From the IMG/VR virus record IMGVR_UViG_3300014205_000193: DNA of 64,000 nucleotides. One strand, given 5' to 3'. A program made the position numbers and the translations under genes. The notes below the pieces were generated by a model that worked only from the letters and a program-made list of their open reading frames with translations, searched no databases and was not told the DNA's origin. Below, piece by piece: positions 54,680 to 64,000 of the stretch (positions are counted from its first letter, which is position 1; the number at the start of each line of letters is the position of its first letter). Origin of the DNA: a virus. Taxonomy: Duplodnaviria; Heunggongvirae; Uroviricota; Caudoviricetes.

Positions 54680-55269
54680 GCGAAAACACAGGAAAAGCGA
54701 TCTGGGCTGCTATTGACAAGATGTCAGATAAGCAATTAGCACATCGGGTGATATCCGCGGCTATGGAGTCTCCCCTACGCGCCGCTTTGGCGTTAAAGTC
54801 TGTAGCTCGCCAGGAGGCGGGAGCAATAATCACCATCAATCGGGGGCAAACCTTATTAGTGTCTTCATTATCTGGTAGTGAGTGGGGTATACTATTACGT
54901 ATGGAGGAAGGTATTTCTGAATACACACCCACTTTAGCGCGAGTTGTCACAGCACCCTGGGATAATAACAATTATTATTACCCACAGGAGTGCGAGTTCA
55001 TTGCTTCCCAGATATGTCAACCGGAAGATGACGAGCTGGATCTAATTGACGCCATGTCCACCACAATAGCTGAACAAGAAAATGCAGCGCTTGCCATTCT
55101 AAAGGCAGCTGCCGTTGCATCGGATAAAGGTACTCCTGCCCCATTGCAGTTGTGCATCAGGACTAACCTCTCTGTATGCCCAACATGGGACGGTATTAGC
55201 AACATATTAACATTCACTTGTTTCGAGCACATAGGAATGGTGCTACCTCTCGTAAGAGGTGAGTCATGA
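54676..55269 (+). CDS. hypothetical protein
   Basis: 197 aa; ATGA overlaps on both sides. Confidence 0.45.
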   Translation: MSENTGKAIWAAIDKMSDKQLAHRVISAAMESPLRAALALKSVARQEAGAIITINRGQTLLVSSLSGSEWGILLRMEEGISEYTPTLARVVTAPWDNNNYYYPQECEFIASQICQPEDDELDLIDAMSTTIAEQENAALAILKAAAVASDKGTPAPLQLCIRTNLSVCPTWDGISNILTFTCFEHIGMVLPLVRGES

Positions 55270-56552
55270 AGCGCATCCTCATTGTGGGTGATGACCCATC
55301 ACTAAACACAGGGTATGCTCGTGTTGCCAGATTCGTAGCACAGACCTTACATGATAATGATTACCGAGTAAGGTACTTACCCTGCAACGCCACCATGTCG
55401 GAAGTTGACCGGCAACAGTGGGGTTTTGAGCTATTACCTTTCAATCCGCAGGATAGGTTTGGTAATCGGAATATTGCCCAGGTTCTCTCAGAGTTTAAAC
55501 CCTCCCTGGTGATATGCTTTGGCGAGTTTAGTTTTGTTGGCTATATCGGTACTGTGTGTCGTCAGTTAGGTATTAAATCTATGTATTACATGCCTGTAGA
55601 AGGTACCGCCTATCCACCACATGTTGTATACATTAGTGGCGGCCACATAGATTATAAACTAACACTTCAGAAGTTTAATTATATCGTGGCATACAGTCAG
55701 TTTGGCGCCGATTGTATCAATGCTTTACTGCCGGGTATCGTCACAGACGTTATGCCTCACCAGGTGGATACAGATGTATTTAGACCCCTCGACCGGCAGG
55801 CCTGTCTTAAGACCTTCTTTCCCCAGTTATTTGAGAGAGGTGAAAACTCCGCCTTTATTGTGGGGCACATTGGCCGTAATCAGCGGCGTAAGGGAACTGA
55901 CCTGGTTATCCAGGGATTTGCTGAATTTGTAAAGAGATACACCACAGACCATTATGTAAAGCCTTATCTATTCTTAACGACTGACCCAAAAGACACTCAT
56001 GGTTTTAATCTTATGAGTTTGTCTGAGGAGTATAAGCTGAATGGTAAGGTGATTTTTAATCCGGTTGTGGGTGGTAAGCAAGGCCCTGCCGATAATCAGA
56101 TGTGTGAAGTGTATAATACTTTTGATGTACACCTATGCCCGCATCGTGCTGAAGGTTTTGGTTTGCCTGTTTTAGAAGGCTTGGCCTGCGGTATCCGCAC
56201 GGTCACAACAAAGTATGCCACTCCTGCTGAATTTGGGGCAGATGTCTGTACACTGGTTGAGCCTGCTTGGTTAGAACCTTGCCCCGGCACTAATACCAAC
56301 TGGGCTGTGATAAATCCTATCAGCATCGCAGACGCTCTGGGCAAGATATATCTCGAAGGGTCAACCAAACATACTCATACTCCTTCAGTAGCTGTAGCGC
56401 AGCAGTTCAGCACCAAGGTGGTAGCAAAGCGTTGGTTAGGTCTATTGAGAGACTTGAATCTTCCTGAAATGTCTGAGATTATAGAGCAGGCTCCAGCTCC
56501 TTCGACAGCACAATCAATTGCGGATGCATACCTTGACACAATGGATGGCTAA
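55266..56552 (+). CDS. GT-B glycosyltransferase (GT4-like)
   Basis: N-terminus MKRILIVGDDPSLNTGYARV; C-terminal E-x7-E motif HRAEGFGLPVLEGLACG. Confidence 0.7.
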   Translation: MKRILIVGDDPSLNTGYARVARFVAQTLHDNDYRVRYLPCNATMSEVDRQQWGFELLPFNPQDRFGNRNIAQVLSEFKPSLVICFGEFSFVGYIGTVCRQLGIKSMYYMPVEGTAYPPHVVYISGGHIDYKLTLQKFNYIVAYSQFGADCINALLPGIVTDVMPHQVDTDVFRPLDRQACLKTFFPQLFERGENSAFIVGHIGRNQRRKGTDLVIQGFAEFVKRYTTDHYVKPYLFLTTDPKDTHGFNLMSLSEEYKLNGKVIFNPVVGGKQGPADNQMCEVYNTFDVHLCPHRAEGFGLPVLEGLACGIRTVTTKYATPAEFGADVCTLVEPAWLEPCPGTNTNWAVINPISIADALGKIYLEGSTKHTHTPSVAVAQQFSTKVVAKRWLGLLRDLNLPEMSEIIEQAPAPSTAQSIADAYLDTMDG

Positions 56553-56684
56553 TCTTATGCGTAAGTTATTCTGGCTTATCTTACAAATGCTTGGGCAGTG
56601 CACGACTTCCAAGCATCCTGAAGGCTGGAAGTGCATACGCCATAGATTTCATTTGGGTAAACATAGAGGATTTAAAGGAGAACG

Positions 56685-61978: not shown

Positions 61979-62827
61979 ATGTCTAAAAAGTATGCACTGG
62001 TGATGACTTGTACAGAGGGGTTACATATAAACGCAAATGCTGCGTTTAACGGTCTTGCCTTGTACGGCAACGATATCGATATCCATTTATTGTCTAAGGA
62101 TATAAATAAAGATTATATCTCTCGACTTCCTTCTTATTTTACCGTTCCTGATTGGAAGACTCAGATCGTTGACCCAAATAAACCGGCTCATAAAGGTGGC
62201 GGTTGGGAAGTTAGATACTATCGGTATTCTTATGTACGAACTATAAAAGATCAATACGATGCTATTCTCACAATGGACGCCGATGTGTTTGTTGTTGGTA
62301 ATCTTATGGAGCATTTTGAACGCGCAGCTAAAGAAGGAGTGCTCATAATGCCAGATAATCCGCAAGGGTGTGCTCTTGACCGTGCTAATTTAGATAATAT
62401 AAAAGGGGCGTCTTCTCCTCCTTATCATTGTCATCCATTCTTTTTTGACCCAAAGAAGTATGATTGGTTAATGGCCGAACTTTATCAAGCTGGAATAACT
62501 GAAGATTATGGGGATATGGCCACATTGTTTCGCACGTTATATCGCCATAATCTACATAAGGATGTGGTTGCTTTACCTAATGACCTATGGTGCTTTACAA
62601 ACTGGCATGCAGATAAGATGCAGTTTGAGATGAAGGATGGTTTGCCACTTCTTACATATAAAAATGGTCGTGTGGTGGTAGTTCACCGTCGGTGGTACCT
62701 GCCTGAAGTTCGTGATAAATTTGTGAGGGATTTGGGACCACAGCATCGAGAAGACGGGACTCATAATGTGCAGATTTTTAAAGATGTGATTGAATGGCTT
62801 AATAATAATGGCCCTATAAAACTATGA
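61979..62827 (+). CDS. putative nucleotide-sugar (DXD) glycosyltransferase
   Basis: DAILTMDADVFVVGNL DXD-like motif. Confidence 0.4.
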   Translation: MSKKYALVMTCTEGLHINANAAFNGLALYGNDIDIHLLSKDINKDYISRLPSYFTVPDWKTQIVDPNKPAHKGGGWEVRYYRYSYVRTIKDQYDAILTMDADVFVVGNLMEHFERAAKEGVLIMPDNPQGCALDRANLDNIKGASSPPYHCHPFFFDPKKYDWLMAELYQAGITEDYGDMATLFRTLYRHNLHKDVVALPNDLWCFTNWHADKMQFEMKDGLPLLTYKNGRVVVVHRRWYLPEVRDKFVRDLGPQHREDGTHNVQIFKDVIEWLNNNGPIKL

Positions 62828-63561
62828 TTACATATTCTGATGTGACTATATGTATTCCCACAAGCTGGGTACCCAGCTGCCCAAGTGGCCGCTTGGTGCA
62901 GCATGTGTATACGCAGTTAGTCACACAATATTCCGGTTTTTCAAAGTGTCCGGTGGTTATCGGATATGATAATTATAAAGGCGAAACTGCATATTATCAA
63001 GAACTATGTAATTTAAGTTTTGCATCCTTTGTTTGTGATACTCGATCTAGTCTTTTAGAATCTATAGCCTATCGTAGGGCACGTAGTTTTAAGAATATGA
63101 TAGACCAAGTCACAACTAAATACTTGTTATTTTGGGAGCATGATTGGGCATTTACTTTTGCTGTCATTGATTGGGATTCTTTGTTCTCTATTCTGGATGC
63201 TGAGTCTACGGTAAACACTGTTTATTTTAATAAGCGTAAGAATGTGCTTCGAGGAGTGGACGTTACCTTACAGCCTCGAACATGGGGTTCGACCACTCTT
63301 TGTCGAACATCTCGGTATTCAAATAATCCTAGTTTGACTTGTACGCGTACATGGCGGACTCGATGTTCTCCAGTAGTTGCTGGTATAGCACAGACGGGTG
63401 TGGAATTAGAGCGAGTAGTTTATGAAGCATATCGGAGTGATATAAAGAAAAAGGGTTTTATAGCTGCTAATGAGGATTGGGGTGCCTATCTATATGGCGA
63501 CCTCAATTCTGGGCCATATGTTAAACATTTTAATGGAGCCGTGTGGAATGGAAAAATATAA
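62824..63561 (+). CDS. hypothetical protein, possible GT-A glycosyltransferase
   Basis: N-terminus VTICIPTSW resembles the GT2 start; weak. Confidence 0.35.
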   Translation: MITYSDVTICIPTSWVPSCPSGRLVQHVYTQLVTQYSGFSKCPVVIGYDNYKGETAYYQELCNLSFASFVCDTRSSLLESIAYRRARSFKNMIDQVTTKYLLFWEHDWAFTFAVIDWDSLFSILDAESTVNTVYFNKRKNVLRGVDVTLQPRTWGSTTLCRTSRYSNNPSLTCTRTWRTRCSPVVAGIAQTGVELERVVYEAYRSDIKKKGFIAANEDWGAYLYGDLNSGPYVKHFNGAVWNGKI

Positions 63562-64000
63562 TATTAGGGTAAGCACTGAGCGATTCAAGTCTTTCATACC
63601 TTTATTAACGGCATGCTGTCAGGCTGTCTCTCCACAAGTAATTGTAGAATATGGACCAGGTGAATCAACACAGTGTTTGTTAGATAATACCACAGGTGTA
63701 ATCTACTCCTGGGAAAACCAATCTTCATATTATGGGCAGGCGGTTACAAGATTTGCAGGCAACTCTCGTGTTAAATTATTCCTAGGGGACACTAAAGCAG
63801 GTCCGGGCAAGAAGACGCCTTATGTTAATGCACCTTATATAATATTGGGTGCACAATCTGCGGACTTAGTGTTTGTGGATGGGCGGTATCGTGCTGACTG
63901 CATGGCTTGCGCATCCATGCTAGTGAAGGATACTGGTGTTGTGGTACTTCATGATGATGAGAGGCCGTCTTATGACCCTGGCAGGAGTCTATTTCCTTTT
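63548..64000 (+). CDS. methyltransferase-like protein, partial (C-terminus beyond window)
   Basis: VIVEYGPGESTQ ... DLVFVDGRYR resembles the class-I MTase motifs of the 11983 gene (EIGSYSGGTT / LFIDGDH). Confidence 0.35.
   Translation, partial: MEKYNIRVSTERFKSFIPLLTACCQAVSPQVIVEYGPGESTQCLLDNTTGVIYSWENQSSYYGQAVTRFAGNSRVKLFLGDTKAGPGKKTPYVNAPYIILGAQSADLVFVDGRYRADCMACASMLVKDTGVVVLHDDERPSYDPGRSLFPF

Follow-up and report, generated by a model that had tools for sequence, protein, structure and literature searches.

A conserved glycosyltransferase and methyltransferase cluster of phage genomes and its association with serine-rich proteins

Introduction

Glycosyltransferase clusters in phages and glycosylation of virions are already known, and they are not a new category. 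To our knowledge, glycans on phage particles have been described in few cases. Such glycans affect antibody recognition, adhesion and stability. We analyzed a 64,000-nt stretch of DNA from a tailed virus (Caudoviricetes; IMG/VR record IMGVR_UViG_3300014205_000193), and this whole stretch is called the window hereafter. Its end carries a cluster of glycosyltransferase genes, including two GT9-like genes that we call GT9a and GT9b, together with methyltransferase-like genes and a NUDIX hydrolase gene. We suggest with moderate confidence that the cluster is a phage-encoded cytoplasmic system for O-glycosylation and O-methylation of serine-rich virion-associated proteins, with a middle cassette that can be swapped. 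In the literature that we searched, we found no description of this particular conserved module, of the GT9b family that is limited to phages or of the pairing with poly-serine (poly-Ser) proteins.

Several described systems resemble this cluster in part. Gram-positive serine-rich-repeat adhesins are modified by GT4 enzymes (GtfA/GtfB) and by GT8-type extenders such as GlyE. The loci described below are similar to these adhesin loci because long Ser-rich candidate acceptors are encoded beside GT4- and GT8-type genes, and the profile of the GT8-like family matches streptococcal 5GVV and glycogenin. Unlike the adhesin loci, they lack GtfB, Asp and accessory Sec genes, and the presumed setting is a phage virion, not a cell-wall adhesin. 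The GT4 enzyme of the cluster (428 amino acids, aa) was tried as a GtfA equivalog (TIGR02918) and is not a member, scoring 25.9 bits against a cut-off of 574.6. Another similar system is the BAHT family (TibC, AAH). TibC, a GT9 enzyme, heptosylates Ser, and a four-Cys iron finger (C339/342/358/370) is inserted in its C-lobe (PMC4358343). GT9a and GT9b share the GT9 GT-B fold, each has TibC among its closest structural neighbours, and the catalytic-base Asp of the N-lobe is conserved. GT9a has a five-Cys insertion in the C-lobe that is reminiscent of the iron finger, but its spacing differs from that of TibC. Unlike BAHT, GT9a and GT9b have neither a beta-barrel domain at the N-terminus nor an autotransporter substrate, and GT9 profiles gave no TibC match at E<=10.

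In mycobacteriophages, cassettes of glycosyltransferase and O-methyltransferase genes (Che8, Corndog, cluster O) glycosylate capsid and tail-tube proteins, as summarized in PMC11600133 (Freeman et al. 2023). As far as that description goes, both systems are soluble, lack export machinery and have tandem phage glycosyltransferases with an O-methyltransferase. Compared by description with the genes alone here, the mycobacteriophage cassettes differ in their core, which in our case consists of a GT9-like pair and GT8-like enzymes with several Methyltransf_24/23 genes and a NUDIX gene. The presumed acceptors also differ from the proteins of capsid and tail tube in that summary, as they are very long poly-Ser tracts on separate proteins. 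Furthermore, the hosts here appear to be of the Gram-negative type. The lipopolysaccharide (LPS) islands of cyanophages and jumbo phages combine many glycosyltransferase families, and their content varies among close relatives (PMC7824862; PMC12801897), as is also the case here. Our cluster is distinguished from those islands by flanks that are conserved around a defined variable slot, by its two GT9-like genes and many O-methyltransferases, and by the poly-Ser association. Phage clusters for sugar hypermodification of DNA also use GT-A and GT-B enzymes of LPS or teichoic-acid origin, with heptose among their sugars (bioRxiv 10.1101/2023.12.21.572611), but the window proteins scanned do not include their partner enzymes, which are either 5mYOX/TET together with a C5 methyltransferase or else a hydroxymethylase. 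TibC/AAH, the mycobacteriophage cassettes and the Ser-rich-repeat adhesins are functional analogies, not family assignments.

Gene organization of the cluster

Positions 54329-64000 of the window form a single unbroken array on the + strand, beginning at the stop codon of a 2956-aa open reading frame (ORF). An initial annotation, made by reading the sequence alone, had placed at least five glycosyltransferases with a NUDIX hydrolase and a methyltransferase at 55266-64000. All the ORFs that it named are present on the + strand at the places given, and five glycosyltransferases are supported (GT4, a 632-aa GT4-like protein, GT9a, GT9b and a GT8-like protein with a DxD motif). The genes of the cluster within the window are as follows.

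55266..56552, + strand, GT4-type GT-B glycosyltransferase, 428 aa (Pfam Glycos_transf_1 / Glyco_trans_1_4; phrog_2170, 2.4e-25)
56691..57224, + strand, NUDIX hydrolase, 177 aa, divergent Nudix box (Pfam NUDIX)
57303..59201, + strand, 632-aa two-domain protein, GT4-like GT-B glycosyltransferase with a C-terminal domain (Pfam Glyco_transf_4)
59194..60513, + strand, GT9a, GT9-like GT-B glycosyltransferase, 439 aa (homologues and predicted structure)
60532..60864, + strand, 110-aa protein with an acidic, Pro/Ser-rich C-terminus (no family match; orthologue in L002, 46% identity)
60857..61063, + strand, 68-aa ORF called in the public assembly (orthologue in L002, 48% identity)
61079..61942, + strand, GT9b, compact GT9-like GT-B glycosyltransferase, 287 aa (family seen solely in phage-like contigs)
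61979..62827, + strand, GT8-like GT-A glycosyltransferase, 282 aa, D-A-D motif (family profile against PDB)
62824..63561, + strand, 245-aa ORFan of the variable cassette (sole member of its family)
63548..64000, + strand, cut by the window end, class-I S-adenosylmethionine (SAM) methyltransferase-like gene of Methyltransf_24 type, 186 aa at full length (sub-threshold Pfam match)

The co-orientation with tight junctions that had been described was borne out; the junctions of the array measure -1, -4, -4, +138, +78, -8, +18, -8, +15, +36, -4 and -14 nt. An AGGA/GGAG-type (Shine-Dalgarno-like) ribosome-binding site precedes most of the cluster starts. Neither promoter-like sites (18, with 20.2 expected) nor terminator-like sites (4, with 7.6 expected) were enriched in the region, and thus the cluster genes look co-transcribed. 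A hairpin in the 138-nt gap upstream of the NUDIX gene was considered as a signal and rejected, as it was insignificant (z -1.45).

The cluster does not end with the window. A public 25-kb contig (L001) matches the window over 11,177 nt with 0 mismatches and reaches 7.5 kb past the window end, and a 236,752-bp contig also carries the same cluster proteins. Read on L001, the cluster runs for about 1.6 kb beyond position 64000 with a second GT8-like and a second methyltransferase gene. The three genes that follow the window are these.

Beyond the window, on L001, conserved GT8-like gene, 284 aa, paralogue of the 282-aa gene
Beyond the window, on L001, Methyltransf_23 gene, 218 aa (phrog methyltransferase, 2.8e-9)
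Beyond the window, on L001, 255-aa protein, no assignment

A sixth glycosyltransferase is therefore located just past the window end, and the cluster also has two methyltransferase-like genes and one NUDIX gene. Its proteins have no membrane-type hydrophobic segment; the sole 19-residue stretch with a mean hydropathy >1.8 is the GT9 core motif of GT9b. Pfam searches of the cluster gave no match for an initiating phosphoglycosyltransferase, flippase, Wzx/Wzy, polymerase, ligase, ABC transporter, exporter or lipid-carrier gene. Megablast of the whole region against GenBank phages gave no match, leaving no cultured relative as a source of annotation.

The core module in other viral contigs

Thirty-one predicted viral contigs were retrieved from IMG/VR with the GT9b alignment. 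In most of them the core genes are Methyltransf_23, GT9a, GT9b and one or two of GT8-like type, in this order, with GT9a joined to a methyltransferase in some cases. Extra Methyltransf_24 genes are usual, with several per locus (31 matches, best 3e-19), and TylF and O-methyltransferase models match too. The GT4, NUDIX, 632-aa and polyvalent genes are absent from this set of contigs. Head or packaging genes are 1.3-7.3 kb from the module in 15 of the 23 loci tabulated. These structural neighbours include a major head protein (phrog_334, 3.6e-81, 1.4 kb upstream; phrog_14242, 1e-36), a portal with a head protease, and a large terminase with a portal. The module is therefore phage-borne, and it tends to be found within or next to the block of head genes. 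Nearby capsid relatives infect Gram-negative hosts (Proteobacteria). The module in the window is probably also part of a phage genome, judging from replication genes, an HNH gene, DNA methyltransferases, the polyvalent protein and a downstream baseplate/fibre-like N-domain.

Poly-Ser proteins beside the module

Poly-Ser was defined as at least 60% Ser/Thr over 30 aa. By this definition, 19 of the 31 loci have co-oriented poly-Ser proteins, most of them at a distance of 0-2 kb from the module, and most of the poly-Ser-free loci end at or near the module. Some of these proteins contain 500-750 residues of SSSSSESxSVS-type repeats, including a 1293-aa protein with about 750; others are 959, 1172 and 1457 aa long. 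In one family, domains of about 190 aa carry poly-Ser tails and the gene directly follows the capsid gene. The non-repeat parts belong to several unrelated families, indicating that the serine tract is borne by different scaffolds. The N-domain of a poly-Ser protein gave no tblastn match in GenBank phages. Poly-Ser protein loci include the following.

L007, 3626-7507
L008, 12763-17136
L013, 11115-13994
L019, 5968-9486
L021, 2695-3675
L025, 6399-7631

A control was anchored on one capsid family and used loci with at least 5 kb downstream. A poly-Ser ORF directly follows the capsid gene in all 11 loci that have module genes and in none of the 18 that lack them. The background in 393 kb of control loci is one poly-Ser ORF among 1056 ORFs. 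The association between module and poly-Ser protein is strong; in the capsid-anchored set, both are traits of one clade.

The same pairing is seen closer to the window. Among relatives of its cluster, L094 encodes a Ser/Cys-rich protein two genes past the cluster, and L099 has two poly-Ser proteins, one directly after GT9b. In L097, a large fibre-like protein ends in an SSSCSSSF tail, and this protein is homologous (E 1e-17) to a 1226-aa protein encoded downstream of the window's cluster. The 1226-aa protein is beta-helix-like (fibre-like) and gave no tblastn match in GenBank phages. On L001, an ORF at 18426-18677 (window-equivalent ~71249-71500) overlaps the last 11 nt up to the stop of the 1226-aa gene, in a different frame, and continues to the contig end. 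This poly-Ser/Cys ORF runs into a Ser/Cys-rich tract and reads ...NTNWIFNESSSSSSSSCSSSSSSCSSSF...; MSTSIIAYLSNGNVDSGNNTNWIFNESSSSSSSSCSSSSSSCSSSF...; SSSSSSSSCSSSSSSCSSSF..., and the L097 homologue has the same Ser/Cys stretch fused in frame. The assembly probably broke inside this repeat on L001. This ORF indicates that the window's genome has the same module/poly-Ser pairing, about 7 kb outside the window.

The GT9-like pair

Both GT9-like assignments of the initial annotation survived testing, as GT9a and GT9b have a GT-B fold and their nearest solved structures are GT9 enzymes. GT9a has 3068 homologues, many of which carry PF01075 or are named heptosyltransferase, and it is 50-57% identical to proteins annotated as glycosyltransferase family 9 from Planctomycetota, Nitrospira, Verrucomicrobiota and Bacteroidota. 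GT9a itself has no Pfam match at E<=0.1, and the PF01075 matches of its homologues are precomputed and weak or faint where marked. The AlphaFold model of GT9a has a predicted local distance difference test (pLDDT) score of 77, with a core near 90. Foldseek against PDB aligned this model with WaaF (4.3e-10), 3TOV (4.8e-10), TibC (1.7e-7) and WaaC (7.5e-7), and GT9 enzymes accounted for 29 of the top 30 matches. The N-terminus is disordered, with residues 1-60 low-confidence or helical in the model. P73-G74-D75 is invariant in 20 sequences, and the conserved cysteines C317, C318, C323, C343 and C357 are inside the C-lobe insertion.

GT9b has no Pfam, NCBIfam or PHROG match. Its model has a Rossmann-like lobe from the very start, H33-G34-x-G36-D37 is invariant in 21 sequences, and there is no Cys cluster. 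The GT9b family profile matched only WaaF in PDB (E 0.068), in two short collinear segments in which its GD is aligned with the GD of WaaF. The catalytic base of WaaC is Asp13. In TibC, the catalytic base is Asp110 (PMC4358343). The Gly-Asp motif in which these catalytic residues lie is retained in both the GT9a and GT9b families. Profile-profile comparison of GT9a with GT9b was insignificant, and a shared C-lobe motif alone aligned (E 0.013, probability 3%). Therefore, the label of a GT9-like pair rests on the fold and not on demonstrated paralogy.

Neither GT9a nor GT9b had a tblastn match in 50,697 GenBank phage records, and a distant GT9b sequence likewise had none. An IMG/VR scan with a single GT9a protein gave no match. 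Sequence-only PDB searches with the GT9a, GT9b, 632-aa, 282-aa and 245-aa proteins returned nothing usable. On a chromosome of Schlesneria paludicola (L005, 8001-11881), a GT9a homologue is followed by a Methyltransf_23 gene and then by a gene for a 670-aa fusion with GT2 and faint GT9 matches, whose best BLAST match to GT9b of the window has 25% identity. Five unannotated genes (213, 238, 246, 253 and 212 aa) precede this GT9a homologue. This gene set indicates that the same enzyme trio also exists in bacteria.

The GT8-like enzyme, the ORFan and the methyltransferases

The 282-aa protein had been noted as a glycosyltransferase with a DXD motif, and we can now call it GT8-like. A profile of its 29-sequence family matched glycogenin-1 (4.6e-5), 5GVV (9.6e-4) and 6MW5 (0.03). 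The protein itself is below the threshold of Pfam GT8 (PF01501; E 0.011, 15.8 bits against 24.3), and four members of its family match this model, the best at 2.5e-5. A101-D102 is nearly invariant within L-D-A-D-M. The 282-aa protein and its 284-aa GT8-like paralogue are 22% identical.

The next ORF, of 245 aa, had been proposed as a possible GT-A enzyme, and neither a family, a fold nor a homologue supports this. A search of 5.8 billion proteins gave no homologue, nor was there a match in Pfam, PHROG, NCBIfam or PDB. A GT2-like GT-A identity was also considered for it and rejected, as it has no homologues and is dissimilar to the GT2 gene in the same slot of L002. The class-I methyltransferase at the window end is weakly supported. 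Motif I (EYGPGES) and VDG are readable, but the Methyltransf_24 match is sub-threshold (E 0.0036-0.0062). The 282-aa and 245-aa cassette genes at 61979-63561 have a G+C content of 0.40, whereas that of the GT4, NUDIX, 632-aa, GT9a and GT9b genes is 0.45-0.51. The low G+C content of these two genes is consistent with separate acquisition of the cassette.

Conserved arms and a variable cassette

The cluster of the window was compared with eight distinct further relatives of its clade, with DNA for seven (L002/L003, L004, L094-L098) and a gene list alone for ERZ1426829. All of them except L095 share a frame in which a conserved left arm and a conserved right arm flank a variable cassette. The left arm consists of GT4, usually NUDIX, a 570-640-aa glycosyltransferase, GT9a, small ORFs and GT9b. 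The right arm consists of the GT8-like gene and Methyltransf_23. In the window, the cassette contains the 282-aa GT8-like gene, the 245-aa ORFan and the Methyltransf_24 gene. In other relatives it contains GT2 genes and methyltransferases; asparagine synthase, an NAD-dependent epimerase and GT4; or radical-SAM/SPASM with GT2 and GT4. Sugar-nucleotide enzymes occur in L094, L096 and L098. In L099, which was also reached by way of the 287-aa family, the genes are ordered differently. In L095 (11503-15882), a gene for a ribonucleotide reductase with an intein, dCMP deaminase genes and an HNH gene split the cluster. This interruption indicates that the left and right arms are separable.

In the left arm, the 428-aa protein matches the two GT4 models, scoring 38.3 and 39.4 bits where the cut-offs are 26.4 and 27 (E 1e-9), and its EGFGLPVLE fits E-x7-E, in agreement with its initial designation as GT4-like. 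Its orthologues in L002 and L004 are 54-63% identical. The NUDIX assignment is also supported by Pfam (26.8 bits against a cut-off of 21.1), with a divergent Nudix box. An alignment of three orthologues retains E-L-x-E-E-A-G-I and three glutamates, with Gln or His in place of the Arg of REUxEE; compared with the canonical Nudix box Gx5Ex7REUxEExGU, position 7 is not Glu in all three. NUDIX lies between the GT4 and 570-640-aa glycosyltransferase genes in L002, L004, ERZ1426829 and L094 (by Pfam or BLAST). L095 and L098 have a similar-sized ORF without a Pfam match at this place, and L097 has no NUDIX gene.

The second GT4-like call, for the 632-aa protein, held as well (Glyco_transf_4, 34.1 bits against 28.5). 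Residues ~11-360 of this protein are a complete GT4-like GT-B module, to which many GT-B proteins of 330-370 aa align (613 HMMER matches). Residues ~400-614 form a separate C-terminal domain that is restricted to close relatives and is thus clade-specific. This domain was considered as a third GT9-like domain and rejected, because a 49-residue alignment with E 0.017 fell to E 0.32 with a 12-sequence profile. It has no significant profile match to the GT9a, GT9b or GT8 profiles.

Upstream of the left arm are the following genes.

45459..54329, + strand, giant polyvalent protein, 2956 aa, with three ART-PolyVal stretches (Pfam ART-PolyVal, 7.4e-31)
54329..54679, + strand, small Cys-rich protein of the DUF6527/BubE family, 116 aa (Pfam DUF6527, 1.9e-8; phrog_3362, 5e-25)
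54676..55269, + strand, 197-aa protein without a family match, with 4-nt overlaps (translational coupling) with both neighbours

The giant gene's stop and the start of the DUF6527 gene overlap. It had been asked at the outset whether the cluster and the giant gene are conserved together. This is the case in L002/L003, ERZ1426829 and L098, where ART-PolyVal proteins (646-2042+ aa) are encoded directly upstream. The proposed tie to an ART-like polyvalent neighbour thus holds within the clade of the window, but not in the 31 other viral contigs, whose core module has no such neighbour. In the giant protein, a short motif in which a K/R-rich stretch precedes N-Q/E-V-L-A/S-A/S-R occurs at least seven times (residues 9, 221, 396, 537, 686, 846 and 1355). 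These copies appear to divide its modules and could be linkers or protease-processing sites. No ORF of the window, including the polyvalent protein, attains 50% Ser/Thr over 30 aa.

Proposed function and alternative explanations

The initial annotation had offered virion-protein glycosylation, host-surface modification or a glycan-based modification system as functions. The poly-Ser neighbours favour the first of these over the other two. In the proposed system, one GT-B enzyme would transfer the first sugar onto Ser hydroxyls of the poly-Ser tract. Candidates for this initiator are the GT9-like pair, by analogy with the protein heptosyltransferases TibC/AAH, or the GT4 enzyme. The 632-aa enzyme, the GT8-like paralogues and enzymes of the variable cassette would extend the glycan, and SAM methyltransferases would O-methylate its sugars. 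NUDIX might tune or clean nucleotide-sugar pools, although this is speculative. On a head- or tail-associated protein, either a fibre or a decoration protein, the product would be a brush of methylated, mucin-like glycans. Exchange of the cassette in the interval between GT9b and GT8-like/Methyltransf_23 would vary the glycan structure among related phages. We tentatively extend this to a wider system, which we consider possible rather than probable: across many phages, the GT9-like pair, GT8-like extenders and batteries of O-methyltransferases may turn the poly-Ser tails of head- or fibre-associated proteins into methylated mucin-like brushes, with the swappable cassette setting a glycan "serotype".

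Several points weigh against this proposal. The glycosylation function is predicted from genes and their context. The poly-Ser link rests on 7.5 kb of additional contig and on relatives, as the 64-kb window has no poly-Ser ORF, and capsid, portal and terminase genes were not found in it either. The out-of-frame Ser/Cys stretch on L001 could be an ORF of its own, or it could result from a frameshift or an assembly error. The co-occurrence counts are not phylogenetically independent, and the frequency of the module in the IMG/VR loci is given by construction because these loci were chosen by means of GT9b. Poly-Ser tracts may serve as no more than flexible linkers. GT9 enzymes classically act in heptosylation of the LPS inner core, and LPS is an available substrate because the capsid relatives infect Gram-negative hosts. 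The bacterial close homologues of GT9a have no poly-Ser proteins in their neighbourhoods.

It is unlikely, in our judgement, that the enzymes instead remodel the host surface. In that case they would act on the LPS core, O-antigen or capsule while the phage infects its host or persists in pseudolysogeny, and one purpose could be to block superinfection. Such remodelling is the usual reading of cyanophage and jumbo-phage glycosyltransferase clusters, and the GT8 family includes LPS glycosyltransferases. GT9a is 50-57% identical to bacterial proteins named ADP-heptose:LPS heptosyltransferase, but these names are automatic annotation, and GT9b is restricted to phage-like contigs. The variable cassette in the middle is similar to O-antigen diversity islands, the capsid relatives infect Proteobacteria, and a jumbo-phage review considers such clusters to diversify surface polysaccharides (PMC7824862). 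However, the cluster contains no phosphoglycosyltransferase, flippase, polymerase, ligase, transporter or membrane protein. Host-surface remodelling also leaves unexplained why the module lies beside head genes in several lineages and tracks with poly-Ser proteins.

The polyvalent protein raises the idea of another acceptor, such as the injected ART-type protein, host proteins or a small molecule in a counter-defence package, with NUDIX processing ADP-ribose-type products. We regard this as improbable. ART-PolyVal is directly upstream with coupled junctions in four independent relatives, and NUDIX is conserved in the left arm; against this stand the 31 viral contigs that carry the core module without a polyvalent neighbour and the lack of a Ser/Thr-rich tract in the polyvalent protein. 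The weak match of the 428-aa enzyme to Pfam GT4-conflict (E 0.015) would fit counter-defence, but it is far under the cut-off. The chance is very small that the enzymes hypermodify DNA, placing mono- to oligosaccharides on hydroxymethylated phage bases to evade restriction. [quoted passage not shown] Among the ~45 window proteins scanned in these 64 kb, however, there is no TET/5mYOX, C5-cytosine methyltransferase or thymidylate-synthase-like hydroxymethylase, and the two DNA methyltransferases of the window are of the MT-A70 and N6/N4 types. TylF/Methyltransf_24-type O-methyltransferases and poly-Ser neighbours are not features of DNA-modification clusters, and six glycosyltransferases exceed the need of the reported mono- to trisaccharide products.

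Significance

If glycosylation of serine-rich virion-associated proteins is true, the GT9a/GT9b/GT8-like/methyltransferase core would be a recognisable marker for glycosylated virions in metagenomes. This hypothesis is directly testable because candidate acceptor proteins are encoded beside the enzymes. It would give a first functional lead for the unannotated phage-only GT9b and for the large bacterial GT9-like family that is named "LPS heptosyltransferase" by default. In the wider system that we consider possible, serine-rich-repeat glycoproteins, until now a bacterial adhesin theme, would become a structural feature of phage particles. A variable cassette between conserved flanks would suggest diversifying selection on phage glycans, comparable to bacterial O-antigen islands. 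If host-surface remodelling is true instead, the cluster would be a fairly ordinary auxiliary gene island.

Other features of the window

A 281-aa Cupin_2 protein is encoded upstream of the polyvalent gene (42671-43516) and is also present in L002/L003 (51% identity) and ERZ1426829; in relatives, a STAS-domain gene is near the Cupin_2 gene. The accessory/early region encodes a patatin-like phospholipase (20287-21729), an SPFH/Band 7 protein (31535-32485) and the adjacent MT-A70 and N6/N4 DNA methyltransferases (26110-27673). Mobile elements are found within this putative phage genome. A serine-recombinase (resolvase) gene followed by a TnpB-type transposase gene (phrog_506, 2.9e-114) forms an IS607-like pair at 35678-37388, and two more transposase-like paralogues (phrog_10081) are at 18256-19161 and 32962-33930. 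Gene orientation switches at ~11100-11950, as the genes at 301-11126 are on the - strand and those from 11947 on are on the + strand. The GC skew flips from negative to positive at this switch, and the cumulative GC skew has its minimum near 8-12 kb. The ~11100-11950 region lies next to the genes for primase, DnaB and the loader and is a candidate for a replication origin or for divergent promoters.

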